Shown here piece by piece: positions 1 to 18,862 of a stretch of DNA of 24,000 nucleotides. Position 1 is the stretch's first letter. The number at the start of each line of letters is the position of its first letter. A program made the position numbers and the translations under genes. A model generated the notes under the pieces. It was not told where the DNA came from. It did no database searches and was given only the letters and a program-made list of their open reading frames with translations. The stretch is from Oscillospiraceae bacterium LCP25S3_E10 (lineage in GTDB: Bacteria; Bacillota; Clostridia; Oscillospirales; Acutalibacteraceae). The stretch lies in assembly GCA_052117325.1 (NCBI GenBank), contig JBQKJJ010000002.1. The stretch is one strand, 5' to 3'.

Positions 1-595
1 TTAATGTTGAGAGAATTCCCCCTATAATTAACGATTCAATTATAGATAAAATTCCCGTAACTACAAAGGCAATACCTGCATTTCTGTTAGCAACATACCA
101 GTTTTTATCACTTTTTCTAGTCCATGATGTTCGCACCCCTACAACTCCGTTGTATTTTGTTTTCGGTAAAAAGTTACCTGTACAAATAAGGACGACACTA
201 AAAATACAATTTACAACCGGGAAAAGAGTATCCATATTAAGTGACGAATTTTGGGATAACATAAAGGATGTAATTATAATAATACATTGGAGTAGACCAA
301 GTGCAGATGTTATTATTGTTGCAATTATGTATAGAACATTTATATTGCTTTTTACTTTTTCAATATCATCAGTATTTGAAATTGAATAAAATTTAATATA
401 TATTATCCAAAATAAATAAAACGCAATTATTATACCGGGGAAAATAAGGTTTTCATATTTAGAACCCCAACGGTCAACATCGCCGTTAATGTTATAGTGT
501 ACCGGTACAATATCATTCATAAAAAATAGAGATATTACAGTAATTACAGCCGGTGCAAAAGAAATAATAAATAATATTCTATTTTTTAATTTCAT
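1..595 (-). CDS. SdpI-family (DUF1648/SdpI-like) polytopic membrane protein; the C-terminal end runs off the window
   Basis: My own minus-strand translation starts at ATG 595-593, 7 nt after GGGGAGG (609-603). It reads MKLKNRILFIISFAPAVITVISLFFMNDIVPVHYNINGDVDRWGSKYENL ... GVVGVRTSWTRKSDKNWYVANRNAGIAFVVTGILSII and stays open to the window edge, which is presumably why it is missing from the ORF track. It has several hydrophobic helices, and its R-T-x-W-T and W..NR segments resemble B. subtilis SdpI. It lies directly downstream of an SdpR-like gene. Confidence 0.7.
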   Translation of the reverse strand, partial: MKLKNRILFIISFAPAVITVISLFFMNDIVPVHYNINGDVDRWGSKYENLIFPGIIIAFYLFWIIYIKFYSISNTDDIEKVKSNINVLYIIATIITSALGLLQCIIIITSFMLSQNSSLNMDTLFPVVNCIFSVVLICTGNFLPKTKYNGVVGVRTSWTRKSDKNWYVANRNAGIAFVVTGILSIIESLIIGGILSTL

Positions 596-608
596 TAATA
601 TACCTCCC

Positions 609-872
609 CTAAAATTGCTTTAACCAAATTATAAGTTCATCAAATAAAGATGTATTAAGTTCATAATAAACATAATTTTTTTCTTTTGTTTCAATAATGA
701 GGTCATTCTTTTTTAGTAAATTTAAATGATACGATAACGACGCGGGAGATATTCCAATTTTTTGGGCAATATCCCCTGCTATCATTTTATCCTTTTTTAA
801 TAGTATCAAAATGTCTCGTCGTGTTGAATCAGACAATGCTTTGAATGTACCCTGTAAAGACAATTGCTTCAA
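609..872 (-). CDS. ArsR-family winged-helix transcriptional regulator, SdpR-like autorepressor
   Basis: The 87-aa ORF contains FKALSDSTRRDILILL...IAGDIAQKIGISPASLSYHLNLLKK, a typical ArsR/SdpR HTH. The codon at 872-870 is TTG and directly abuts GGAGG (877-873). The in-frame TTG at 863-861, 9 nt after the RBS, is therefore the more likely start. Confidence 0.85.
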   Translation of the reverse strand: MKQLSLQGTFKALSDSTRRDILILLKKDKMIAGDIAQKIGISPASLSYHLNLLKKNDLIIETKEKNYVYYELNTSLFDELIIWLKQF

Positions 873-7313: not shown

Positions 7314-8009
7314 TTACTCTAATATTAATGCCCTTAGCATCGTAACATCGTTAGCATCAAACTTACCGTCTTTATTCAGGTCATTTTTTGCTATTTCCTC
7401 TGCGGTCATATCATCTGCATGAACATATTTACCGGCTATTATTAAATAGTCAGAAACTGTTACAGCATTGTCACCATCTAAGTCGCCAACCAAAGTTTCC
7501 GGCTGAGCTGGTGCTTCTGTTTCAGGGGTAGAAACAACTTCTAATTTCTCTGTAAATTTGTCTGTAATTTGCTCAAAATTATTATTAACTATATCTGTAA
7601 TACTGTAGTTAAATGGCAGTTCATCTGCCGCAGCGTCCTCGTTAAGTACAAACTCTACAGCAGCAACAAGCTGTCCGCCGCTTATCATATAATCCATTCT
7701 TCCCAATGCGGCACAAATTCTCAAATTGTCCGATTCGTCCTTAACTTGAGTAATAGCATCATTTAGGAAGCTGTATGTTGTTGACTGATTGAAAGACAGC
7801 TTATCGGAATTATATTTAACTATAAAGTCAATACCGCAAAAATCGCTGTCAACATCTGAAGGCAAATATAGTGAGTATCTAAATACTGTGCCTGCCTTAT
7901 ATTGGCCTTTTTCAGGATTGACCTGGGCTGATGCAGTCACTGCAAACAAAGATGTTACTATAATCAGCACACCCACAAATGACGCTAATAACTTTTTAAC
8001 TTGATTCAT
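7314..8009 (-). CDS. Secreted single-cohesin-like module protein with C-terminal dockerin (adaptor-scaffoldin-like)
   Basis: 231 aa. The signal peptide is MNQVKKLLASFVGVLIIVTSLFAVTASA. A cohesin-like beta module spans about aa 29-160 (GTVFRYSLYLP...GIDFIVKYNSDKLSF...VAAVEFVL). An acidic Pro-rich linker is TPETEAPAQPE. The dockerin (aa 174-231, nt 7317-7490) has two Ca-binding loops, DLDGDNAVTVSD and DLNKDGKFDAND. Confidence 0.75.
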   Translation of the reverse strand: MNQVKKLLASFVGVLIIVTSLFAVTASAQVNPEKGQYKAGTVFRYSLYLPSDVDSDFCGIDFIVKYNSDKLSFNQSTTYSFLNDAITQVKDESDNLRICAALGRMDYMISGGQLVAAVEFVLNEDAAADELPFNYSITDIVNNNFEQITDKFTEKLEVVSTPETEAPAQPETLVGDLDGDNAVTVSDYLIIAGKYVHADDMTAEEIAKNDLNKDGKFDANDVTMLRALILE

Positions 8010-8100
8010 TCTGTTCAGTTCCTTTCAAATAACGAATTTTTAAAAATTCATTATTACTTTTGTTATTCTTCCAACCTACAAAACCTAACGGAACTAATAC

Positions 8101-8817
8101 TTAATCACTGACGCTGTCTGCCTGCTTTTGTTTTTTCTTTTTATATACAATAGCAACTACCACAAGTACCACTGCTGCTGCGGCAACACCTACAATAGCC
8201 CATATCATAAACGGGTTACTGTTGTTTGTGTTGTTGTCATTTACAACGGATGCGGTATCTGCAGTTGCAGAGTCCTGCTTTATTGCGTCCATACCGTCTA
8301 CAGGATTTACGATTTCACCGTCATATTTGCCCTTTTCAATTTGTTCATTTATTGAATAGTCAGATGAGGTCATATCCTTTAAATCTGTATCGTACATTTC
8401 GGACACAGCTATTTTTATTTCATTATCTGAAGCCTTTTCTTTTACCGTAAAAGATGCTGAAATAAGTAGCTTTTCTTCTTTAAAATCAAAACCCTTTGCG
8501 GCGTCAATGGCTGCAAATTTTATTGACCCTGTTTTTTCGGAATTGGCAATGGTTTGTCCCAGATTTGGTACATTAATACTGCTTTTATCCAATTCCAAAG
8601 AATTGCTGTCGTACTTAATCTCAGCATTTATGCCGGAACAGTTTTTGTCCGCCTTTAGTTTCACAGTAAATGTAACTGTATCTCCCTCGTTAAATTCCTT
8701 TGAATTAACGGTAACAGTATTTGCGGCAAAGGCCGTAATCACACTCATAGCAATAATTACGGTAGCTGCTGCAAAGCAAGTTATTATTCGACTGGCTATA
8801 TGGCTGTTTTTCCTCAC
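8101..8817 (-). CDS. Membrane-anchored single-cohesin-like protein (candidate anchoring scaffoldin)
   Basis: 238 aa, with GTG start 8817 placed 9 nt after GGAGG (8832-8828). It has a signal peptide/N-terminal hydrophobic segment and a cohesin-like module at about aa 33-145 (GDTVTFTVKLKADKNCSGINAEIKYDSNSLEL...ISASFTVKEKA). A Ser/Asn/Asp-rich spacer follows. The C-terminal TM helix is FMIWAIVGVAAAAVVLVVVAIVY (nt 8143-8211), followed by a KKKKQKQ tail. I saw no LPXTG motif. Confidence 0.7.
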   Translation of the reverse strand: MRKNSHIASRIITCFAAATVIIAMSVITAFAANTVTVNSKEFNEGDTVTFTVKLKADKNCSGINAEIKYDSNSLELDKSSINVPNLGQTIANSEKTGSIKFAAIDAAKGFDFKEEKLLISASFTVKEKASDNEIKIAVSEMYDTDLKDMTSSDYSINEQIEKGKYDGEIVNPVDGMDAIKQDSATADTASVVNDNNTNNSNPFMIWAIVGVAAAAVVLVVVAIVYKKKKQKQADSVSD

Positions 8818-9112
8818 TATAGAATTCCTCCATACTGATTATATAAATGATATTTTTTCTACGCACTGTTTAATCGTCTATTTTTTTGATAAGCCCACAA
8901 ATTCAGCAAGCAATAAAGTGAAATATTGATATGCTTACATTAACTCTGTAAAAAATAAAAATCTCTTTTGCCACACATCTGCAAAGACTTAACTTTACAT
9001 ATACATACACCGGCCCCTGCTACCTGTAAATATTCGTTTACAACAAAAGGCCTTGGTAAGATTTTCAGCTTGCCTTAATAACTAAATAACAATATCATAA
9101 AATAAACGAAAT

Positions 9113-9141
9113 AGCAAGCACCACAGATTGCAGTGCTTGCT
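9113..9141 (-). terminator. Terminator (possibly partial) after the large scaffoldin gene
   Basis: Stem AGCAAGCAC (9113-9121) / GTGCTTGCT (9133-9141). On the minus strand it is followed by a T-rich ATTTCGTTTATTTTAT. Confidence 0.5.
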
Positions 9142-9166
9142 AAGACAAATTGGATTTACCGATTAA

Positions 9167-12100
9167 TTAAGATATCAGTTTCTTCAAAGCTGAAATATCG
9201 CTCATATTAAATCTGCCGTCACCGTTTATATCAGCCGCCTCAAGCTGCTCGGCTGTAATGTGGTCTATCTTTAGATACCAAGAACAAATTACTGTGTAGT
9301 CACTCATTGTTACACTGCCGTCATTGTCCAGGTCGCCAAGAAGTCTCTTAGGCTCTACACGAACATAGCTTTCAAAAGCTGAACCGTTTTTCGGCTGGTA
9401 CTCATCGTCAACATATGTTAAGCTGCTGCCGTTAATATCGCAAAGCTCTCTCATTCTGTATGAAAGTGTAGTTGTACAATCCTCTTTAGCAATAAACTGC
9501 AAGCAAATTAGCTTTTGAACTGTTCCTGTGTTGTAGTTTAAGCCCTTTGACAAATCATCAATGCTCTTAACATTGTTATATACTGCCTCACCAGGAATCT
9601 GTGTTGAGCTTAGGAATATATCACCAGGGAATACGCTTGGTTTTACAGCGCTGTCACCCAGTGCGTAATCTATCTGTGCAGTACCTGATGCAAAGCCGTT
9701 ATTCTCGGCAAATTCTTTGTTGATTTCAAGCTTGTCGTTATCATAGAACATATCTACTGTCCAACCTGAAATATCAATACCTGTTGAAGGTAATACCAAT
9801 TCTACCCAATAATCAACCTTGTCACCCTTCTTAACAGTTACCTCTGTTGCAGCTGTAGTTGGTCTCTGTGTAGGCTGCTCTGTAGGAGTTGTAGGTGTAG
9901 TTGGTGTTGTAGGTGTTGTAGGTGTAGTTGGTGTAGTTGGAGTTGTTGGAGTTGTAGGTGTAGTTGGTGTTGTTGGTGTTGTAGGCTGTTCGCTGGAAAC
10001 GATCTTATAATCCTGACCGAACTTAGCACCGTCTGCAGCCTGGTATGTACCGTCAATATATGCATTGTCTAGGTCTACATCGCACATTTCTCTTAGTCTG
10101 TAGCTTAGGTTAATTGTGCCTGTTTCCTTAGCTGTGTACTGTACGCATATTAGCTTCTGAGTAGAACCTGTGTTTAGTCCCAATGAAGAATGTACAGCGC
10201 TTACAAATGAAACTCTTGCCTTTGTATCCTTAATGTCAAGCATACTTCCGCCAGGAAGTGCTGCAGGTGTTGTAGTGTTGCCTATTGCATAATCAATAGC
10301 TGCTGTACCGCAAGCATAACCTGCTGTTGCAAATGAAGAATCATATTCAAGCTTATTGCTGTCATATAGGAAGTCAACAACCCAGCCTGATACATCTTTA
10401 CCGCTTTTTGGAATATTTACTTCTGCCCAGTAAGCAACCTTGTCGCCCTTCTTAACAGAAATTTCCTTAGCTGCTGTTGTTGGAGCTGTCAGCCATTCGT
10501 CTGTTGATGGATCTGTTGGTGTTGTTGGGTCTGTTGGTGTTTCGCCGCTTACAACAGCACTGTTGCTGCTTGAAACCTTTGTTGTTACAGGTTGTCCTGT
10601 CTGTGAGTTATACTGGTTTTCAGCGTCAAGACCAATAGCCTCTTTCATCTTATAAGAAATAGTAGCTGTTCCTGCTTTCTTAGCTACAAATGAAACAGTA
10701 ATTAGGTTCTTCTGTGTTGTAAAGTCGTAAGTTGTAGTAGGTGTACCGATACCAACTGTAGAAATCAGTCCGTCTTCCTCGGTTCTCTGCTGTGTCATTC
10801 CTGAAATGTTAGGGAATGATACTGAATTTACTGTAAGTAGTGATGAATCATAGTTAATATCTGTTCTAAAGCCGTAAAGCTTTTCAGCAAACTTAAAGTC
10901 AACCTTGTAAGTTACTGTGTCGCCGGCTTTAAATGTAACCTTTGTTGAACCTGTTGTTGCATCCTCTGTGCCACTCTGAACAACAGCGTTCTGTGAAATT
11001 GACAAACCGCTTACAGGCTTAGCATTTACTACAAGGTCGTTTTCGTTATCGTCAATCATTTCGTTGATAGTGTAGCTAATCTTGTATGTGCCTGCCTTCT
11101 TAGCTGTAAAGCGTACTGTCTGAATTGTAGTATTGCTTTCTGCTGTATAGCAGTCATTTGCAGGTGCAAGTGCAATAGCACTGATCTTGCCTGCAGTTGT
11201 AGTATTAACTATCTCTGTACCCTTGTTTGAACCAAGAGTATCTACACCGTCTTTACTGTATGTAGTATCAAGTGCAAAAGCAGAAGCGTCGTAATTTGTT
11301 GTTATGTTATAAGAACCAATCTTCTTTGATGTTTTTGCATCTACAGTAAATGTAACTGTATCTCCTGCCTTTACAGTAACAGATTTTTCACCGGTTACCT
11401 GTGTTCCAGGAGTGGTTGGTGTAGTAGGTGTCTGTGTTGGAGTAGTTGGAGTAGTTGGAGTAGTTGGAGTGGTTGGTGTAGTAGGTGTCTGTGTTGGTGT
11501 TGTTGGTACTTGTGTTGGATCTGTTGGGTGGATGTTTGTACCTACATAAGCAAACGGAGCTGTAACATTGTCCTCGTCGCTCTTCTCTTTACTGTTCTTC
11601 TCATGGGAGGCACCTGCATCACTTTGGTCTGCATTGTCATTCATTGACAAATCATAAGGCAGACAGTCCATACCGGACTTACCAAATGTGGCAATGTTCA
11701 TAATGCCGACACCTTTAGATTCAATGTCGCTCTTTGTAACGCCAAGAATTGAAAGCGGAATAGACATCTCATAGTGGAAGTCCATTCCATCGCTGTTGTG
11801 GCCCTTTGTATTAAAGTCAACCCAAGCAGCACTTTGGTTGCACATATCGCCTATGACTCTGTTGTGACTTTGACCATAACCGCCGTCAATGCCGTAAACA
11901 TTTTTGCTGACTATACCATCACCATATTTGAAGTTAATACCTGCTGTTGATGAATTGTAAACTTCCTTTGGATTAAGGCCTGTGCTGTCACCTGAGTATA
12001 CAAAAGGTCCGTTTGAACCGTTTGTAGAAATTGCAATAAGTCTGTTAAAGCTTCTGTCAATAGTAATACCTGAATCCCAAATAGTACCTGATGTTTGCAG

Positions 12101-12628
12101 CTTACCGCTGTTTCCTATTGCGTCAGACTTACCTGTATCAATCGCAATAAAGAAAGGTAAATTCTGATTTTGGTACAAATGACCCTGTGTTAACGGATAG
12201 TCAGCAGCAGGAGCAACAACATCCTGAACATTTGTCATTTCCCACATTAGGTACAGGTTATTGTCGTCCCAAGCACCGTACATAGCGTACATATCAATAG
12301 GTACCTCGTGCATTGAATCATCACGATATACTCTTGGGTCATCGTTTGCTGTACCCTGAGCAATAAGCATTGAGCTATCCCAGTCAGAAATGTCTCCATC
12401 TATAGTTATGGTCTTATTTTTACCAAAACCTGTGCCATTTGTGGAGTAGTAGCTGGCTAATGAAGATGAGCTTGCATTTGCACTGCTCAAAGCTGTTGGA
12501 CCGACCTTTGCTGAGTCGGCACTTTGCTGGTTTGTGCTTGTAGCTGCTGTTGCAGGAACAACGCACATTGACGCAACCATTAAAGCCGCAAGAACTGAGC
12601 TTACAACTTTACGCTGGTGTTTTGCCAT
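9167..12628 (-). CDS. Large secreted scaffoldin-like protein: signal peptide, ~300-aa N-terminal domain, four cohesin-like modules separated by Thr/Pro linkers, C-terminal dockerin
   Basis: 1153 aa, with ATG 12628 placed 8 nt after GGAGG. The signal peptide is MAKHQRKVVSSVLAALMVASMCVVPATA. Module motifs are VTVKAGDTVTFTVDA...NYDASAFAL, VTFKAGDTVTYKVDF...NYDSSLLTV, ISVKKGDKVAYWAEV...LYDSNKLEY and VTVKKGDKVDYWVEL...FYDNDKLEI. The dockerin is LLGDLDNDGSVTMSDY...ADINGDGRFNMSDISALKKLIS. Confidence 0.8.
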   Translation of the reverse strand: MAKHQRKVVSSVLAALMVASMCVVPATAATSTNQQSADSAKVGPTALSSANASSSSLASYYSTNGTGFGKNKTITIDGDISDWDSSMLIAQGTANDDPRVYRDDSMHEVPIDMYAMYGAWDDNNLYLMWEMTNVQDVVAPAADYPLTQGHLYQNQNLPFFIAIDTGKSDAIGNSGKLQTSGTIWDSGITIDRSFNRLIAISTNGSNGPFVYSGDSTGLNPKEVYNSSTAGINFKYGDGIVSKNVYGIDGGYGQSHNRVIGDMCNQSAAWVDFNTKGHNSDGMDFHYEMSIPLSILGVTKSDIESKGVGIMNIATFGKSGMDCLPYDLSMNDNADQSDAGASHEKNSKEKSDEDNVTAPFAYVGTNIHPTDPTQVPTTPTQTPTTPTTPTTPTTPTTPTQTPTTPTTPGTQVTGEKSVTVKAGDTVTFTVDAKTSKKIGSYNITTNYDASAFALDTTYSKDGVDTLGSNKGTEIVNTTTAGKISAIALAPANDCYTAESNTTIQTVRFTAKKAGTYKISYTINEMIDDNENDLVVNAKPVSGLSISQNAVVQSGTEDATTGSTKVTFKAGDTVTYKVDFKFAEKLYGFRTDINYDSSLLTVNSVSFPNISGMTQQRTEEDGLISTVGIGTPTTTYDFTTQKNLITVSFVAKKAGTATISYKMKEAIGLDAENQYNSQTGQPVTTKVSSSNSAVVSGETPTDPTTPTDPSTDEWLTAPTTAAKEISVKKGDKVAYWAEVNIPKSGKDVSGWVVDFLYDSNKLEYDSSFATAGYACGTAAIDYAIGNTTTPAALPGGSMLDIKDTKARVSFVSAVHSSLGLNTGSTQKLICVQYTAKETGTINLSYRLREMCDVDLDNAYIDGTYQAADGAKFGQDYKIVSSEQPTTPTTPTTPTTPTTPTTPTTPTTPTTPTTPTTPTEQPTQRPTTAATEVTVKKGDKVDYWVELVLPSTGIDISGWTVDMFYDNDKLEINKEFAENNGFASGTAQIDYALGDSAVKPSVFPGDIFLSSTQIPGEAVYNNVKSIDDLSKGLNYNTGTVQKLICLQFIAKEDCTTTLSYRMRELCDINGSSLTYVDDEYQPKNGSAFESYVRVEPKRLLGDLDNDGSVTMSDYTVICSWYLKIDHITAEQLEAADINGDGRFNMSDISALKKLIS
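9170..9343 (-). other. Dockerin module of the scaffoldin
   Basis: There are two EF-hand-like loops, DLDNDGSVTMSD and DINGDGRFNMSD. The LLGDLDND codons were verified at 9343-9320. Confidence 0.75.
9350..9859 (-). other. Cohesin-like module 4 (about aa 924-1093)
   Basis: See module 3. Confidence 0.55.
9881..9985 (-). repeat. Imperfect 9-bp tandem repeat (about 11.7 copies) encoding (Pro-Thr-Thr)11-Pro-Thr linker
   Basis: Codon-by-codon reading of 9881-9985 gives 11 x PTT followed by PT, with synonymous variation between copies (ACA/ACT, CCA/CCT). Confidence 0.9.
9995..10483 (-). other. Cohesin-like module 3 (about aa 716-878)
   Basis: Paralogous to module 4. Compare KKGDKVAYWAEV with KKGDKVDYWVEL, SGWVVDFLYD with SGWTVDMFYD, and QKLICVQYTAKE...LSYRLREMCD with QKLICLQFIAKE...LSYRMRELCD. 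Confidence 0.55.
10550..10963 (-). other. Cohesin-like module 2 (about aa 556-693)
   Basis: See module 1. It shares the motifs KAGDTVT and NYD-S. Confidence 0.55.
10994..11398 (-). other. Cohesin-like module 1 (about aa 411-545)
   Basis: Boundaries come from the flanking linker and a Gly/Ser/Thr spacer. It is paralogous to module 2 (FTAKKAGTYKISY vs FVAKKAGTATISY). Confidence 0.55.
11411..11497 (-). repeat. Exact 30-bp direct repeat (11411-11440 and 11468-11497, 57-bp period) inside the first Thr/Pro linker
   Basis: AGTGGTTGGTGTAGTAGGTGTCTGTGTTGG occurs twice on the plus strand. It encodes the PTQTPTTPTT segments of the linker spanning 11405-11527. Confidence 0.85.
11543..12457 (-). other. 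Scaffoldin N-terminal domain (about aa 58-362), function unknown; possibly carbohydrate-binding (CBM9/DOMON-like motif)
   Basis: The TITIDGDISDWD ... YGAWDDNNLYLMWEMTN ... FFIAIDTG pattern resembles the D-G-x-x-x-x-W / W-D-x-x-x-L-Y signature of CBM9-like sugar-binding modules. This is motif-level recognition only. Confidence 0.3.
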
Positions 12629-12899
12629 TAAAATTCCTCCTTTTTCTTCTCTATGTAAGCATATCTATGCACTTTTTATTATAAAGAACTTCAATAAAAA
12701 TTACAATGGTTTTTATCATAGCAAAATCAAAATCGTATATTATAACAAAAAACACTGGAAAATTTTATACAGGATAACCTCTAAATTTATGTCTTTACAA
12801 AGAAAAAAGACACGCAACAGTTAGATTTGTAGGCAATATCAAAAAGCTATCTATATTTATATGCAAGTTTACGAACAATTTTAGCAACATCTGTATAAT

Positions 12900-12945
12900 A
12901 AAAATAAACAGCTAAGGCGACAAGCCCAAAAGCCTGCCGCCTTAG
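12900..12945 (-). terminator. Terminator downstream of galE
   Basis: Stem GCTAAGGCG (12910-12918) / CGCCTTAGC (12937-12945) with inner pairs. On the minus strand it is followed by TGTTTATTT. Confidence 0.55.
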
Positions 12946-12984
12946 CAACCATTACATATTGAAACATAAAAAATTATTTACAAA

Positions 12985-13998
12985 TTATTCCTCATAACCC
13001 TTTGGATTGTTAGACTGCCATCTCCAAGAATCCTTGCACATATTCTCCAAGGTTTCTTCAGCCCGCCAGCCAAGAACATCTCTTGCCTTTGTCGGGTCTG
13101 CATAGCACTCTGCAATGTCGCCGTCTCTTCTAGGCTTAATTACATAAGGTATCTTAATATCGTTGGCTTTTTCAAAAGCTTTAACAATATCCAAAACACT
13201 GTAGCCTATGCCTGTACCAAGGTTGAATATTTCTGTACCCTTGTTTTTGTGGGCATATTCTATTGCCTTTACATGTCCCTTTGCCAAATCAACTACATGT
13301 ATATAGTCTCTTACGCCTGTACCGTCGTGAGTTGGGTAATCGTTTCCGAACACTCCCAGCTGAGGCAGCTTGCCGATAGCAACCTGTGTGATATACGGCA
13401 GCAAATTGTTTGGAATACCTGTAGGGTCTTCGCCTATTCTGCCGCTTGGGTGAGCACCTATTGGGTTAAAGTACCTTAGCAATACTACCGACAAATTTTT
13501 GTTAGCTGCAGCAGCGTCTGTTAAAATTTGCTCTATCATTAGTTTTGTCCAACCATATGGGTTAGTACAGCCTGTTTTCATACCCTCTACAAGAGGCACT
13601 CTTTCAGGCACTCCGTAAACTGTAGCCGACGAACTAAATACAAAATTGTTTACATTATATTTTGCCATAGCCTCCAGCAAAGTAAGCGTAGTATCAAGGT
13701 TATTTCTATAGTACATAAGCGGCTTTGCAACAGACTCACCTACAGCCTTGAAGCCTGCAAAATGAATTACTGCGTCAAAGTTCTCTTTTGCAAACATACT
13801 GTCAACCTTTTCTTTGTCTGCAACATCTATATTATAGAAAGGAATATCCTGCCCTGTAAGCTCCTTTAGTCTTTCAAGCACTGCCGGCTTACTGTTTGAA
13901 AGGTCGTCTGCAATAACTGCCTTGTGGCCTGCCTTTATAAGCTCAATGCAAGTGTGGCTGCCGATAAATCCGGCGCCGCCTGTAAGTAAAATTTTCAT
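12985..13998 (-). CDS. galE: UDP-glucose 4-epimerase
   Basis: 337 aa with MKILLTGGAGFIGSH (Rossmann GxxGxxG) and an S..YG.TK-type catalytic region (NPYGWTKLM). The length is typical of GalE. Confidence 0.95.
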   Translation of the reverse strand: MKILLTGGAGFIGSHTCIELIKAGHKAVIADDLSNSKPAVLERLKELTGQDIPFYNIDVADKEKVDSMFAKENFDAVIHFAGFKAVGESVAKPLMYYRNNLDTTLTLLEAMAKYNVNNFVFSSSATVYGVPERVPLVEGMKTGCTNPYGWTKLMIEQILTDAAAANKNLSVVLLRYFNPIGAHPSGRIGEDPTGIPNNLLPYITQVAIGKLPQLGVFGNDYPTHDGTGVRDYIHVVDLAKGHVKAIEYAHKNKGTEIFNLGTGIGYSVLDIVKAFEKANDIKIPYVIKPRRDGDIAECYADPTKARDVLGWRAEETLENMCKDSWRWQSNNPKGYEE

Positions 13999-14041
13999 TT
14001 ATATACCTGCTTTCTGCAAAAAACTAGATTATTTTATACAG

Positions 14042-14070
14042 ATTATAACAAATATAAAATTTCTTTGCAA
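14042..14070 (-). promoter_or_regulatory. Sigma-A promoter of galE
   Basis: On the minus strand: TTGCAA (14070-14065), a 17-nt spacer, then TATAAT (14047-14042). Confidence 0.55.
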
Positions 14071-14198
14071 TAACAATAAAAACTTTTACAAATTATATCT
14101 GTTTTCGCAAACACAGCCTTAAATTTTCTGCAATATTTACAGTCTTAAAGCTTTATAATAATCTTTCATAACACTGCGCCGCACAACTTAACAAAAGC

Positions 14199-14242
14199 AA
14201 AATGCTACGGACTATATAAAATCAAATAGTCCATAGCATTTT
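14199..14242 (-). terminator. Long hairpin (17-bp stem, one mismatch); probable terminator of the agrD-agrB unit
   Basis: AAAATGCTACGGACTAT (14199-14215) pairs with ATAGTCCATAGCATTTT (14226-14242). On the minus strand it is followed by GCTTTTGTT. It lies about 150 nt downstream of the agrB stop. Confidence 0.45.
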
Positions 14243-14391: not shown

Positions 14392-14964
14392 TTACTCCCG
14401 TGTACCGGCTTTATTTTTGTACTTTCCCAATATCAGTAAGGCAGAAAGCACAAACCACGCATATGAAATGCAAAAAGCCATACTATATTTGGAAGTTAAA
14501 ACAAGCAGCAACATTATACCGAGTTCAATTAATAAAATAATAGCGCTGCGCCTCCTGTATTTTATAACTTCATCTTTGTTAATATATTTATAAACACTAT
14601 CTACAGGTGATAAAACAAATATAGCAGGCAGCCCCACTACCGCACACAGGATAATAACCCAGGTAAAGTCGGTAAAAAAGGTCAGCAATAAATTTAATGT
14701 TGTAATAATACAACAAGATATTGCCAGACAAGAAATAAAATTCTTTGCATGGAAGCCACCGGCATACTGCCTCAGCACTGCAAATGTCCCAAAAAATACT
14801 ATTGTCTCCAGCACATTTCCAAATAATATGCCGATTATGAGGAATATGCAAAATGAAAAAACCATTTCCTCAATTAGTTGTAAGCCAAAGCAATATACCT
14901 TCCGCTCGTTTTCCTTTATAATGTTGGCTTCCACCATATACGCAACAATTTTATCTCTTAACAT
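14392..14964 (-). CDS. agrB: AgrB-family accessory gene regulator B (membrane endopeptidase that processes AgrD)
   Basis: Multi-TM protein with LRQYAGGFHAKNFISCLAIS. The His and Cys are 7 residues apart, the same spacing as the catalytic His/Cys pair of S. aureus AgrB. The N-terminus MLRDKIVAYMVEANIIKENERKVYCFGLQ matches the clostridial AgrB pattern. I therefore prefer ATG 14964 over the ORF-track start 14979. Confidence 0.85.
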   Translation of the reverse strand: MLRDKIVAYMVEANIIKENERKVYCFGLQLIEEMVFSFCIFLIIGILFGNVLETIVFFGTFAVLRQYAGGFHAKNFISCLAISCCIITTLNLLLTFFTDFTWVIILCAVVGLPAIFVLSPVDSVYKYINKDEVIKYRRRSAIILLIELGIMLLLVLTSKYSMAFCISYAWFVLSALLILGKYKNKAGTRE

Positions 14965-15112
14965 TCTTGAACATCTCAATTTCCTTTGGTGCTACAGGCT
15001 GATGAGCCAAAATACTTGATGTTGTATTCGCACTGTTGATGATTATCTTTTCTACTGCACTCTTTGTGATTTTGCATAGGTTTGTTTTTAGTGATGCCTT
15101 TAGTGATTTCAT
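14951..15112 (-). CDS. agrD: AgrD-like cyclic autoinducing peptide precursor (53 aa); not in the ORF track
   Basis: My own translation starts at ATG 15112-15110, after GGGAGGTGAGAGAT. It reads MKSLKASLKTNLCKITKSAVEKIIINSANTTSSILAHQPVAPKEIEMFKNVKR with stop TAA at 14953-14951. It has an amphipathic N-terminus and a short core. The charged tail, beginning HQPxxPKE, resembles the AgrB-recognition tail recalled from clostridial AgrD peptides. It overlaps the agrB start by 14 nt. Confidence 0.7.
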   Translation of the reverse strand: MKSLKASLKTNLCKITKSAVEKIIINSANTTSSILAHQPVAPKEIEMFKNVKR

Positions 15113-15350: not shown

Positions 15351-16526
15351 TTATTTTTCTTTCAAAAGTACGGCAAGCTGTATTTTCTGTGTAAAGTTTG
15401 TCATTCTTAAACATATAGCAGCCACAACAGCTACAAATACCCCAAGAACAATTAAAGCACTTACAGGACTTACCTCTGCAGTAAGGGTAATCAGTCCTCC
15501 CTTTACCATTGAGGCAAGAATAGGGTTAAGTATAAGCTGTGCGCACACCGCCGACAATGCCAACGCTATTATATATGCTATTAACAGCAGCAGCAAATAT
15601 TCCAAAAAGATAATTACAAATATATGCCCTGTTTTGTAGCCAAGCGCCCTATACAGGGCAAGCTCGTTGGTTCTGTTTTTAATACAGCCGGAAATAAATA
15701 TTGAGGTGCCCATTACTGTCATTACCAAAAATACTGCCAAAACAATAACCATAATAATAAGTGACAGGTTAAAGGTGCTTAGGTCTATTCTAAAGCTGTT
15801 TTCGTAGGCAACGCCTCCGTATTTTTCACATTCATCAATAAGCTGTTGCTTATTTGTACCCTTTGCCAAAGCAAGGCTGTATGTTATACTCTCGTTTTCG
15901 TCATCGGCGCTTTTTTCGGAATATTTTAAAAGCTGGTCGCAGCTTGTATATATACACTGGGTATCAAGGGCAGGGTCGGTAACATCGTAGGTGCCTGCTA
16001 CCTTTAGCTTGTATTGGTTGCCGTTTTCATCAACAAAGTTTAGCTCCTTGCCCACAAACTTTTTACAGTCCACATCTATCCGCATTTGGGTTTGCAGGTC
16101 TTTGTCGTGGTAGATTTCCGGCATAAGCACAGTGTCTTTGTCGGTACTTTTTAGCTGACTGCCTTTTGTAACCACAGGCTCATAGTCCATATGTAAATAC
16201 GACAGATTAACAGTTGAATTAAAGGTTTTGTCGGCAGAGGTCAGCACTATGTCATATGGCGAAATGCTTATACCCTCAACGCCATCCATAGCCGCCAGCT
16301 TATCCTTTGCACCTTTGTTATTTATGTCTACATCTACCATTAGTTCCTTATTGTAAGGGTGGTTGTTTACCTTTTGGTCCATATCCGTCCACAGTCTGAT
16401 AACTACAGATGAAGTAAGCAATATACATATAACGCAGATAGCGTTAAAAATTACAAACACTATGCTTCTTGCCTTTTGCTGAGTAACAGACGCCTTTATA
16501 AGCATTAAAAAATTAACTATTGTCAC
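15351..16526 (-). CDS. FtsX/MacB-type ABC transporter permease (second permease of the operon)
   Basis: 391 aa with one N-terminal TM, an extracytoplasmic domain of about 200 aa and three C-terminal TMs. The GTG start overlaps the ATPase stop (GTGA). ATG 16505 is an alternative start. Confidence 0.85.
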   Translation of the reverse strand: MTIVNFLMLIKASVTQQKARSIVFVIFNAICVICILLTSSVVIRLWTDMDQKVNNHPYNKELMVDVDINNKGAKDKLAAMDGVEGISISPYDIVLTSADKTFNSTVNLSYLHMDYEPVVTKGSQLKSTDKDTVLMPEIYHDKDLQTQMRIDVDCKKFVGKELNFVDENGNQYKLKVAGTYDVTDPALDTQCIYTSCDQLLKYSEKSADDENESITYSLALAKGTNKQQLIDECEKYGGVAYENSFRIDLSTFNLSLIIMVIVLAVFLVMTVMGTSIFISGCIKNRTNELALYRALGYKTGHIFVIIFLEYLLLLLIAYIIALALSAVCAQLILNPILASMVKGGLITLTAEVSPVSALIVLGVFVAVVAAICLRMTNFTQKIQLAVLLKEK

Positions 16527-17197
16527 CGCTTTTCATCCCCCAGTACGCCGTCCTTCATATAGTAAACTCTGTCTGCATACTCCAAAATACTTTCGTTATG
16601 CGACACCACCATAATTCCCTTGCCCTGCTGTGCAAGTTCTTTTAGCAGTGTGAATATAATTACCTCGTTTTCGCTATCAAGGTTACCTGTAGGTTCGTCT
16701 GCCAAAATAAAGTCGGGGTCATTTGCCAAGGCTCTGGCTACAGCCACACGCTGCTGCTCTCCGCCCGAAAGCTGGCTAGGGTAGTGCTCTGCACGCTCTG
16801 ACAGTCCTACTACATCTATTAGCTCCTTTGCCTTTTTTTCCATTTCTGCCTTGTTTTTATACTCCGGGTTAATCAGCATTGGCAGCATTACATTTTCGTA
16901 TGCCTTTAGCTGTGGGTTAAGGTGAAATGCCTGAAAAACAAAGCCCAGGCTTTTTTGGCGTACATCTGCAATAGCGTTTTTAGGCAGCTTTGAAACATCC
17001 TTTGAATTAATGAATATACTGCCGCTTGTAGGCAGGTCCAGTAGACCTATCATTTGCAGCAGGGTACTTTTGCCCGAGCCGGAGTGTCCCATTACTACAA
17101 TAAATTCCCCTTGGTTAATAGTAATACTTACTTCTTTTAACGCTGTTACCTTTTGGTTGTAAACCTTTACAAGGTCTTTTGCTACTATTGAGTTCAT
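16523..17197 (-). CDS. ABC transporter ATP-binding protein (MacB/LolD-like)
   Basis: 224 aa. It has Walker [10 protein letters not shown], signature LSGGEQQR, Walker [12 protein letters not shown] and H-loop VVSHN. GGAGG lies upstream of ATG 17197. Confidence 0.95.
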
Positions 17198-17256
17198 AAA
17201 ATATCCTCCTTATTTTTATGTTTTTGCTAATTTTCAAAATTTATTATATAAACGCC

Positions 17257-18660
17257 TTAAGCGTTCATAGCCTCCTGAGGCTGTATTTTTGCTATGTTGT
17301 ACACCATTATAAGCAAGCAAACAAGCGGTATAACCAGTATAACCCCAAAAGCTATGGCAAGCAGTATTAAAAAGCTTGTCCATGGCATTACATACATTTG
17401 CTGTGCTGTGTCGCCCGACGAATTAATAAGATTTATTAACAGCACCGCTGCCGCCGACAACGCACCGCCTATTAACAATGCCTTTACAGCCAGTATTATA
17501 TTTTCAAGGTACATACTGTAGAAAATTTGACTTGTTTTGTAGCCTACGGCTTTCATAAGTCCTATTTCTGCCTTTCGCTCGGCTATGTTGTTATGCACGC
17601 TTAAAAATATATTTATAACCGTAAGCAGTAGTATAGCCGCCGTTAAAAATGTACCTACACCGCCAAAAATTCCCGTAAACGCAAGCATAGATTCGTCAAT
17701 ATAGCCTACCTGCACACCGGCATTAAAGCCCATACTTTTAAGCTGGCTCATTACCTCTGCAATGTTGTCTATGCTGTCGGCTGTAACAACATAATCTCTT
17801 GCGTATTCATCGTTTATATATTCATCAAGGTCGTCCTTCATACCGTTTTTCACGGCATTGTCAAGTGCCATTTTATCTATTTTTTCGGCTGTTGCTTTCG
17901 ATACTAATATACTATCACCGCCATCCAGTGAAGTTGCCTTGGAGTAGTAATAAATACCCACCACCTTTAGCTTGTAGGTTATTTTCGGCAAGCTGGTCCA
18001 TTCGCCCAGATAGCCCTTTTCGTATCCTCGTTTTTCACCCTTTGTAAATTGATGTATAAGATATTCCAAATCTACGGTAATTGTTTTGCCGATAAGACTT
18101 TCTGTGCTTATTTTTTCACGGGCTACGGTATTTCCTAAATCTTCGTCTATATCCTCATAAGTAAAGGTATGGGGTAATATACAGCTCATTTCAGGTGCTT
18201 TGTCCAGCCCGGTTCCTTTTATTACCTTGTTTATGTAATCACTGTCATAAAATTGTTCTCCTAAGCCTGCAGTAAGCTTATCTAAATTGGTTTCGCTTGT
18301 TGTGTTGCTTACATCCTTATTATTTTCATCTGTAATTTTAGTTATTGTTATCATTTCCGGCATAGTAGGAAGCGCCGCCCTTTCACAAGAAACAACATGC
18401 TCAAGCGAAAGAACATCACCCATTGTTTTATCTGTTATTCCCTTTCCTCCACTTGGATAGCAAGACTCCGGCATTATATACCCTTGCCTGCATATTTTCT
18501 TATTTTTATACTCATCACAGGTAGTATTTACAATGCTTAAAAAACCTACCAGCAGCGTAACTGCCACTACTGACAGTATCATCATAACCATTACAGTGTT
18601 TTTTCTTTTTGAGCCTTTCAGGTTTGCCCTAGCTAAAAATAAATTGTTGCTTATTCTCAT
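17257..18660 (-). CDS. FtsX/MacB-type ABC transporter permease (first permease)
   Basis: The ORF track gives 17257-18693. I prefer ATG 18660 (MRISNNLFLARANLKGSKRKN...), which lies about 9 nt after GGAGG. It has one N-terminal TM, an extracytoplasmic domain of about 300 aa and three C-terminal TMs. Confidence 0.85.
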   Translation of the reverse strand: MRISNNLFLARANLKGSKRKNTVMVMMILSVVAVTLLVGFLSIVNTTCDEYKNKKICRQGYIMPESCYPSGGKGITDKTMGDVLSLEHVVSCERAALPTMPEMITITKITDENNKDVSNTTSETNLDKLTAGLGEQFYDSDYINKVIKGTGLDKAPEMSCILPHTFTYEDIDEDLGNTVAREKISTESLIGKTITVDLEYLIHQFTKGEKRGYEKGYLGEWTSLPKITYKLKVVGIYYYSKATSLDGGDSILVSKATAEKIDKMALDNAVKNGMKDDLDEYINDEYARDYVVTADSIDNIAEVMSQLKSMGFNAGVQVGYIDESMLAFTGIFGGVGTFLTAAILLLTVINIFLSVHNNIAERKAEIGLMKAVGYKTSQIFYSMYLENIILAVKALLIGGALSAAAVLLINLINSSGDTAQQMYVMPWTSFLILLAIAFGVILVIPLVCLLIMVYNIAKIQPQEAMNA

Positions 18661-18862
18661 AAAAAAATACCTCCACTTCCTATAATACAACAACTGCGTT
18701 TATAGGAGTAAAGGTATTTTTAAAAAACAATCCGCCAAAAATCGGTTTGCAAATAAGTCTTAAAATTGTATAACCCAACAGCAATTTGTTCTGTTTACCG
18801 TAATTAGCCCTAAAAAACACAACTGTAATTCTAAAAAATTGTAAGCTTTTAACTTCGCTTGT

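Follow-up and report, generated by a model that had tools for sequence, protein, structure and literature searches.

The agrD-agrB pair

We analyzed a 24,000-nt stretch of contig JBQKJJ010000002.1 from Oscillospiraceae bacterium LCP25S3_E10 (hereafter, the window; all coordinates refer to it unless another locus is named), in which a short open reading frame (ORF) on the minus strand runs into the gene of an AgrB-type membrane peptidase. As argued below, these two genes, agrD (15112-14951, minus strand) and agrB (14964-14392, minus strand), probably represent the signal-production half of an agr-type quorum-sensing system, the ancestral agrA-agrC-agrD-agrB layout of which was split in this lineage. 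The nearest reference genome is that of Clostridium sp. CAG:964, a sister species with 88% identity in AgrB, and the window is 91.3% identical at the nucleotide level to L005, a locus of the CAG:964 lineage; the public names found in the same protein clusters include Acutalibacteraceae, Oscillospiraceae and Ruminococcus.

agrD encodes a 53-amino-acid precursor that consists of a leader (residues 1-31), a predicted ring core Ser32-Ser33-Ile34-Leu35-Ala36, and a follower, HQPVAPKEIEMFKNVKR (residues 37-53). The ribosome-binding site GGAGG (15125-15121, minus strand) is located 8 nt before the ATG and is kept in L001 and L005. An earlier note on this DNA, written by a model reading the bare sequence, had proposed this ORF as an AgrD-like gene; the coordinates, the 53 residues and the strong ribosome-binding site given there all hold, and so does the assignment when checked with a profile hidden Markov model. 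The peptide matches the NCBIfam model TIGR04223 (AgrD family cyclic lactone autoinducer peptide) with 23.7 bits against a curated cutoff of 19 (E = 4e-05), residues 14-44 aligning with model positions 5-35 of 38. Furthermore, the model is matched by all 11 aligned relatives (E <= 0.01) and by 5 more representatives (26-38 bits). The earlier note called the gene unannotated, which is true only of the ORF track available to that reader because NCBI already lists the exact peptide under the name of the TIGR04223 family (MCI6008160.1, MDD6446666.1, MDY2855536.1 and MGO5077038.1, from Oscillospiraceae bacterium LCP25S3_E10 and Ruminococcus sp.), with AgrB under neighbouring accession numbers (MCI6008159.1 and MDY2855537.1). 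The 53-amino-acid gene is called, with the exact AgrB present, on at least 22 independent contigs; this AgrB also occurs in the assemblies GCA_052117245.1, GCA_052116925.1, GCA_034089045.1 and GCA_022770565.1 and on the ENA contig ERZ28615732 scaffold_76. Judged by its sequence, the small ORF is an AgrD. A darobactin-family identity was considered as well and rejected as noise (14.5 bits against a cutoff of 45).

agrB encodes a predicted 190-amino-acid membrane peptidase/cyclase with evident hydrophobic stretches. It matches the Pfam AgrB family (PF04647; E = 2.8e-41, 141.3 bits), with residues 4-178 aligned to model positions 2-182 of 185, and reaches 41 bits against the staphylococcal-type equivalog model NF002210, far under the cutoff of 282, so that it is a member of the family but not a staphylococcal-type orthologue. 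The start at 14964 is supported by the first nine residues, which the homologues keep along with their N-terminal K-I-V-x-x-M-V pattern, and by the beginning of the Pfam match at residue 4; some gene callers choose the alternative start at Met10, which gives 181-amino-acid versions. In S. aureus AgrB, the catalytic pair is His77/Cys84. The counterparts in the window, noticed already in the earlier note, would be His72 (14751-14749) and Cys79 (14730-14728), seven residues apart within GGFHAKNFISC and both invariant in 18 of 18 AgrB homologues, although only Cys79 is an unbiased test of conservation because the His motif belonged to the search pattern used for retrieval. Sequence searches of PDB with AgrB, both as a single sequence and as a profile, detected no solved structure, so the catalytic residues are judged by conservation.

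The last 14 nt of agrD overlap the start of agrB in a different frame (14964-14951, minus strand), as the earlier note had described, an arrangement indicative of translational coupling. The ratio of nonsynonymous to synonymous substitution rates (dN/dS) between the window and the CAG:964 lineage is 0.13 for agrD (L005) and 0.18-0.19 for agrB, comparable to the 0.14-0.15 of the neighbouring FtsX gene. Both genes are under purifying selection, and the pair is maintained rather than decaying. The small ORF is also kept beside agrB in relatives with AgrB proteins that are only 41-47% identical. Thus, agrD and agrB are real genes, translationally coupled and selectively maintained.

Gene order among related loci

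For a survey of gene order, small same-strand ORFs were checked around every retrieved AgrB match, covering 18 related lineages. An AgrD-like ORF directly precedes agrB in 10 of the 18, a proportion that is not generalisable because the sample was seeded with the AgrB motifs of this clade, the His motif included. These D-before-B loci comprise those with a Ser at the first ring position of AgrD (Ser-type: the CAG:964 group, L003, L006, L007 and L008) and those with a Cys (Cys-type, from Lachnospiraceae and relatives: L012, L014, L015, L017 and L019). The canonical order, with the AgrD-like ORF downstream of agrB, was found in L009-L011 (C. mangenotii) and L013, and in L016, L018, L020 and L021 no AgrD candidate was recognised. 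The distance between the agrD stop and the agrB start is -4 nt in L006-L008, +1 nt in L012, L014, L015, L017 and L019, and +5 nt in L003.

In L003, L006 and L007, agrA-agrC lies directly upstream of agrD-agrB; in L008, agrC is upstream of agrDB and the contig ends before any agrA. The A-C-D-B arrangement is the layout of most of the D-B loci surveyed, and the D-B order with tight coupling is clearly normal in this clade. The same order has been published for the agr2 locus of C. difficile, agrA2C2D2B2, opposite to that of S. aureus (PMC12274312, PMC8534292). The survey thus bears out the expectation of the earlier note that the small ORF would be conserved next to agrB, and contradicts its view that the D-before-B order with overlap is unusual. 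A second agrD at the canonical position downstream of agrB was sought and rejected, the only ORF there (14383-14285, 32 amino acids) being devoid of AgrD features.

The predicted ring and its chemistry

The ring codons S-S-I-L-A (tca agt att ttg gct) occupy 15019-15005 on the minus strand, with Ser32 (15019-15017) as the predicted nucleophile. When the peptides are aligned without gaps, this residue falls in one column with the lone ring Cys of six Cys-type AgrDs and the Ser of five Ser-type ones (compare, for example, SANTTCTWISHQPKTP of L013 with SANTTSSILAHQPVAP of the window). In all six Cys-type peptides, the sole ring Cys falls in this column, and ring position 2 is occupied by a small residue (T, S, A or G). 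Ser32 and four further residues are followed by His37-Gln-Pro-x-x-Pro, where Gln38, Pro39 and Pro42 are at least 90% conserved. The ten Ser-type cores (SSILA, SSFLA, SSFWN, SSFYA, SSLWA, SSFFS, SSIFA, SSAFF, SSIIA and SCFVA) have an invariant Ser at position 1 and, at position 2, Ser in nine cases and Cys in one; positions 3-5 vary, and the NTT and HQPxxP flanks around the cores are conserved. Invariance of the first Ser, variation at positions 3-5 and conservation of the flanks together suggest a specificity-determining five-residue ring closed through Ser32. The earlier note had worded it accordingly, and its prediction that Ser32 closes an S-S-I-L-A ring and that AgrD is cut between Ala36 and His37 is supported as a prediction by the column shared with the Cys-type ring Cys. 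The predicted product, cyclic SSILA, would have a monoisotopic mass of 471.269 Da ([M+H]+ 472.277) and would be a lactone, with rearrangement to the lactam isomer possible.

The Ser lactone is not new in kind. A tail-free Ser-lactone pentapeptide derived from an AgrD-type gene of C. thermocellum has been reported by liquid chromatography-tandem mass spectrometry (LC-MS/MS) (PMC5322536), and Ser lactones are a rare known variant of autoinducing peptides (AIPs), the lactone/lactam fate of which has been left open (PMC8251862). AIPs of Clostridia generally lack an N-terminal extension, and their thiolactone versions rearrange to lactams (PMC8251862).

This precedent bears on the form of the mature signal. 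The biosynthesis could be the same and the signal still not a lactone if the free alpha-amine of Ser32 took over the acyl group in an O-to-N shift, giving head-to-tail cyclo(SSILA) of identical mass; the lactams that arise spontaneously from tail-free clostridial thiolactone AIPs are the active signals (PMC8251862), and the NTT before the ring is common to Cys-type relatives that lose their entire leader. Such a shift presupposes, however, complete removal of the leader in this AgrD, and for C. thermocellum the Ser peptide is reported to be a lactone that matched a synthetic standard (PMC5322536). We rate the lactam as somewhat less likely than not. The residue that closes the ring is a separate question. 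Since Ser33 is nearly invariant in the Ser-type clade, almost as conserved as Ser32, and the Ser-type relative P0112 combines Ser with Cys, the choice of Ser32 as the nucleophile is an argument from the alignment, which counts against our assignment, and closure by Ser33 (a four-residue ring) or by Thr31 (a six-residue ring) can be envisaged. We consider this quite improbable, given that the Ser32 column holds the only ring Cys of every one of the six Cys-type relatives, followed by a small residue, and that five-residue rings are the rule among AgrB products.

P0112 itself deserves mention as a potential special case: with Cys at ring position 2 (SANTTSCFVAHQPVAP; TTSCFVAHQP), closure via Ser to a five-residue ring and via Cys to a four-residue ring are both possible.

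Promoter, tandem boxes and transcription unit

Upstream of agrD, we found two 15-bp direct repeats with a 20-bp period, matching at 13 of 15 positions, a score reached by 3 of 1000 shuffled sequences. Box 1, TCATCGTTTTTACAA (15204-15190, minus strand), is a candidate AgrA (LytTR) site and is identical in L001, L002 and L005. Box 2, TCATCGTTTTGTCAA (15184-15170, minus strand), overlaps a -35-like TTGTCA; here, L001, L002 and L005 differ at one position (GACAA for GTCAA), within the consensus that was searched. In the window and loci L001-L022, the box pattern is unique to the agrD promoter and its orthologues, and the boxes are kept in the sister species although the ~30 nt just upstream have diverged. 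Analogous repeats precede agrD in L006 and L007, both with adjacent agrAC, at periods of 21 and 20 bp, respectively (0 of 1000 shuffles each). Operators of LytTR regulators such as AgrA are paired direct repeats about two helical turns apart beside a promoter. Just downstream of the boxes there is a promoter-like pair, -35 TTGTTA and -10 TAAAAT (15163-15135, minus strand), with a 17-nt spacer and 9 of 12 consensus matches, recognised from the sequence only; TTGTCA/TATTTT (15176-15148, minus strand) is an alternative match to the consensus.

The boxes are separated from the upstream FtsX/ABC operon by the predicted intrinsic terminator of the latter (15300-15259, minus strand), with a 14-bp stem followed by UUUUU. 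Its fold has a free energy of -16.5 kcal/mol (z = -5.0), equalled by none of 200 shuffles, and L001 keeps the stem by a compensatory CAG/CUG to CGG/CCG change. With this predicted terminator upstream of it and a predicted promoter with repeats, agrDB appears as a transcription unit of its own. Inclusion of the FtsX/ABC genes in the module was considered and dismissed, given the strong terminator in between and the presence of agrAC in that place in other Ser-type loci. No convincing terminator was detected downstream of agrB, and an Rfam scan of the window yielded only two tRNAs, with no RNAIII-like or other RNA near agrDB.

A different motif, AGTTAG(G/A)TG, is found upstream of agrD in the Cys-type D-B loci L012, L014, L015, L017 and L019 (e.g., CCCAGTTAGGTG in L017); by eye, it is closer to the classical staphylococcal AgrA box than the Ser-type boxes are.

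Candidate sensor genes

The window, which covers 14.4 kb past the end of agrB and 8.9 kb ahead of agrD, encodes no homologue of AgrC or AgrA. When a profile was made from the AgrC sequences of L003, L006, L007 and L008, it led to an abundant kinase, P0060, which is 49% identical to the AgrC of L003 and is paired with a LytTR regulator in L022, a stand-alone agrA-agrC locus with no agrDB nearby. The tetranucleotide signature of L022 correlates with that of the window at r = 0.968, compared to 0.964-0.983 for orthologous-locus controls; no other locus exceeds 0.89. Clostridium sp. CAG:964 has an AgrA (CDC79392.1) identical to that of L022, and the same genome holds AgrB CDC79502.1 and AgrD CDC79503.1; both sets are present in two more assemblies (MEE0569344 with MEE0569262/3, and MFR3075142 with MFR3075114/5). 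On three sister-species contigs, agrA-agrC is convergent with agrDB, encoded on the other strand 33.5, 30.8 and 30.8 kb past the 3' end of agrB. The AgrC and AgrA of L022 belong inside the clade formed by the kinases and regulators that accompany Ser-type agrDB, with 38-49% and 40-50% identity, respectively. Variants of the stand-alone agrAC in the same gene context show 91-92% DNA identity, equal to the 91.3% divergence level between the window and CAG:964. If the window is syntenic, agrAC would lie roughly 16-19 kb beyond window coordinate 1. The split into producer and sensor is established for the sister species CAG:964, and we infer it for the species of the window.

The earlier note had described the module as orphan, with the sensor encoded elsewhere or of another type, and had suggested a genome-wide search for agrC and agrA. 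The first description is accurate for the window but probably wrong at the genome level, given the sister-species agrAC 30.8-33.5 kb away on the same contig. A sensor of another type is probably a wrong expectation too, because the sister species carries a matching agrA-agrC pair and the LytTR-style tandem boxes are kept. The wider search located the pair in CAG:964 and, in the window's own species, where it covered the window and the ~22 kb downstream of agrB in L059, found none.

The gene context of the stand-alone agrA-agrC is constant: it is always preceded by two genes for ABC_membrane+ABC_tran half-transporters (568 and 578 amino acids) and a lactamase_B-family gene, next to rpsL-rpsG-fusA-tuf (1790-5239 in L022; 6151-9601 in L070/L075). 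The 385-amino-acid methyltransferase gene after agrC is called in two pieces in L062, L063, L066, L067 and L076-L080, into products of 114+198, 157+228 or 257+122 amino acids, and the AgrC of L043 is called with 401 rather than 431 amino acids; such split or short calls may be frameshifts or assembly errors.

Weighing the interpretation

Several results weigh against the interpretation of this region as the producer half of a divided circuit wired through the boxes. Among the individually scored peptides, the AgrD of the window has the lowest TIGR04223 score (23.7 bits), and a Pfam search with the 53-amino-acid peptide found no family at E <= 10, the AgrD model included. The boxes are a candidate operator that matches the classical 9-bp LytTR consensus only partly; in L003, with its adjacent agrAC, ATCATTTTGTCAA occupies the same offset (-91) with the same period of 20, but at 11 of 15 matches is not significant alone, in L008 no tandem repeat was found within 240 nt upstream of agrD, and the boxes were sought and not found upstream of the stand-alone agrA in L022, so that autoregulation of the agrAC promoter by way of these boxes is improbable. 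In L059, a locus of the window's own species, agrCA was not found in the ~22 kb downstream of agrB, which include the ~10 kb next to the window. The AgrA variants P0160 and P0164 (92.8% identical) come from contigs of other samples, and no contig carrying them together with the exact AgrB of the window was found. A walk in L059 leftward from the gene of a 285-amino-acid kinase as far as RimP did not meet agrAC either, and a comparison of agrDB-side with agrAC-side loci gave no sequence overlap.

Two more sceptical accounts draw on these points. If the small ORF were a chance ORF or a non-functional remnant and agrB a relic, the missing Pfam match and the modest TIGR04223 score would be expected; the former, however, is no argument against AgrD function because the Pfam model was built on staphylococcal sequences, and the latter is over the curated cutoff. 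Together with the strong ribosome-binding site, the low dN/dS of both genes (0.13 and 0.18-0.19), the near-invariant core kept upstream of agrB down to 41-47% AgrB identity, and the recurrence of the pair on at least 22 independent contigs, this account is effectively refuted already. Alternatively, agrDB could be truly orphan in the window's species, agrAC having been lost and the peptide being sensed by an unrelated kinase or serving mainly to interfere with the agr systems of neighbours. The empty 24-kb window, the ~22 kb downstream of agrB in the same species, and the lack of a same-contig link in that species are compatible with such a loss, and agrBD loci that work without agrCA are known, e.g., agr1 of C. 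difficile (PMC8534292). It is unlikely nonetheless: agrAC is still found on the contig of agrDB in the sister species, there are agrAC variants as divergent as those of the window's species should be (91-92% at the nucleotide level, compared to 91.3% between the window and L005), and the tandem boxes have been kept across both species while the ~30 nt just upstream diverged.

We therefore favor, as the probable interpretation, the producer half of a split agr system, which could operate as follows. Based on what is known of the family, AgrB would cut AgrD after Ala36 with His72/Cys79 and hold the peptide as an acyl-enzyme, which Ser32 would attack to close the five-residue S-S-I-L-A ring. The leader would then be removed, probably leaving no exocyclic tail, as in other Clostridia, so that a cyclic pentapeptide results. 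By comparison with the relatives, the peptide would be sensed by an AgrC-type kinase together with a LytTR regulator, both encoded on the opposite strand ~30-35 kb downstream of agrB, and the regulator would bind the tandem boxes and autoinduce agrDB.

Comparison with known agr systems

The agr system of S. aureus is autoinducing, with an AgrB in which His and Cys are 7 residues apart, an AgrD composed of a leader, a five-residue ring and a charged, Pro-containing follower, and a LytTR regulator whose target sites are paired direct repeats spaced by about two helical turns. The window resembles S. aureus agrBDCA in the His/Cys spacing of 7, the predicted three-part build of AgrD, the paired repeats of the candidate operator and the autoinduction logic of the proposed circuit. 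The order B-D-C-A, a thiolactone with a tail of 2-4 residues and the divergent RNAIII promoter are features of S. aureus that the window does not show; it has neither an Rfam match near agrDB nor a divergent transcript partner. Macrocycles closed by a Ser hydroxyl are also made by AgrB-family enzymes in the case of the AIP of Staphylococcus intermedius/pseudintermedius and of GBAP of Enterococcus faecalis, but these peptides are from other phyletic groups, have other cores and are both N-terminally tailed, and the ring of GBAP has nine residues.

For the C. difficile AgrD2, a Cys-based ring is assumed here. Like L003, L006 and L007, C. difficile R20291 agr2 (agrA2-C2-D2-B2) reverses the S. aureus order of the four genes, agrD coming before agrB (PMC12274312, PMC8534292); there, however, the four genes are contiguous, whereas in the lineage of the window the A-C half is ~31-34 kb from the D-B half and on the other strand. 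The two-gene agrBD loci (C. difficile agr1, C. perfringens and C. botulinum) likewise lack an adjacent agrCA, their regulators being encoded elsewhere (PMC8534292), but they are of the Cys type, and no AgrCA of the matching subfamily is known in the genome, whereas the sister species of the window has one. A further parallel is Clo1313_2818 of C. thermocellum (Acetivibrio), with a tail-free five-residue ring that has a Ser nucleophile and is followed by an aromatic residue or His and a conserved Pro; this bacterium, too, is a clostridial bearer of cohesins and dockerins, its agrD is not co-located with agrCA, and the peptide has been detected by LC-MS/MS (PMC5322536). The agrD of C. thermocellum stands alone, without an identified AgrB, whereas in the window agrD runs into agrB, and a candidate pair of sensor genes is at hand; the cores differ.

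Against this background, the agrD-agrB pair is genuine but ordinary: public databases already name it, and its gene order and Ser ring have precedents in the literature. What adds some interest is the apparent division of the circuit into producer and sensor units ~31-34 kb apart, with the producer promoter keeping the tandem boxes. The direct significance is modest, namely, that a common lineage of human-gut Clostridia, the CAG:964 group, carries an intact, selected producer of an agr peptide signal, in the vicinity of genes for cohesin/dockerin surface proteins. The analysis does provide concrete predictions, that is, the signal cyclo-SSILA ([M+H]+ 472.277), the operator boxes at 15204-15170 and the location of the sensor genes, and offers a second natural system, after C. 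thermocellum, for the lactone versus lactam question in tail-free Ser-cyclized autoinducers. In genome scanning, neither the D-before-B order nor a lack of agrCA within 24 kb should be treated as an anomaly, both being normal in this clade. More speculatively, the Ser-Ser-type AgrDs (SANTTSS-x3-HQP; Acutalibacteraceae and Ruminococcus) might constitute a distinct chemotype of tail-free Ser-cyclized autoinducers, combined in CAG:964 with a circuit split by ~31-34 kb and wired through conserved AgrA boxes, a broader proposition that we hold only tentatively and consider rather doubtful as a whole. If it is true, the split in this abundant human-gut lineage could let the producer and the sensor be regulated or exchanged independently.

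Genomic neighbourhood

Upstream of agrDB, on the same strand, lies an FtsX/ABC/FtsX transporter operon, and downstream there are galE, a gene for a 1153-amino-acid cohesin/dockerin scaffoldin-like protein, and housekeeping genes. The FtsX/ABC cluster (15351-18693, minus strand; also in L001 and L023-L031) has two FtsX genes in the window and three in many relatives, with an optional gene for a 144-amino-acid protein. Past galE, three cohesin/dockerin genes adjoin each other (7314-12628, minus strand), encoding the 1153-amino-acid protein, a 238-amino-acid cohesin and a 231-amino-acid dockerin. The large protein, with cohesin domains, Pro/Thr linkers and a C-terminal dockerin, ranges from 1045 to 1162 amino acids across strains and species; the gene of the 231-amino-acid dockerin is not called in the sister-species locus L001.

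A strain-variable insertion of three genes, encoding an ArsR-type HTH_20 regulator, a DUF1648/SdpI-like membrane protein and an Rce1-like protease, is present in L061 (~12300-14200 in locus coordinates, L059 compared with L061) and absent from L059; it resembles an immunity module of the sdpR/sdpI type. The strain of the window has the insertion, as indicated by the HTH gene at 872-609 on the minus strand (window 1-872). The two tRNA genes, both on the plus strand, are tRNA-Leu (anticodon TAG; 1302-1386) and tRNA-Met (anticodon CAT; 1671-1747).

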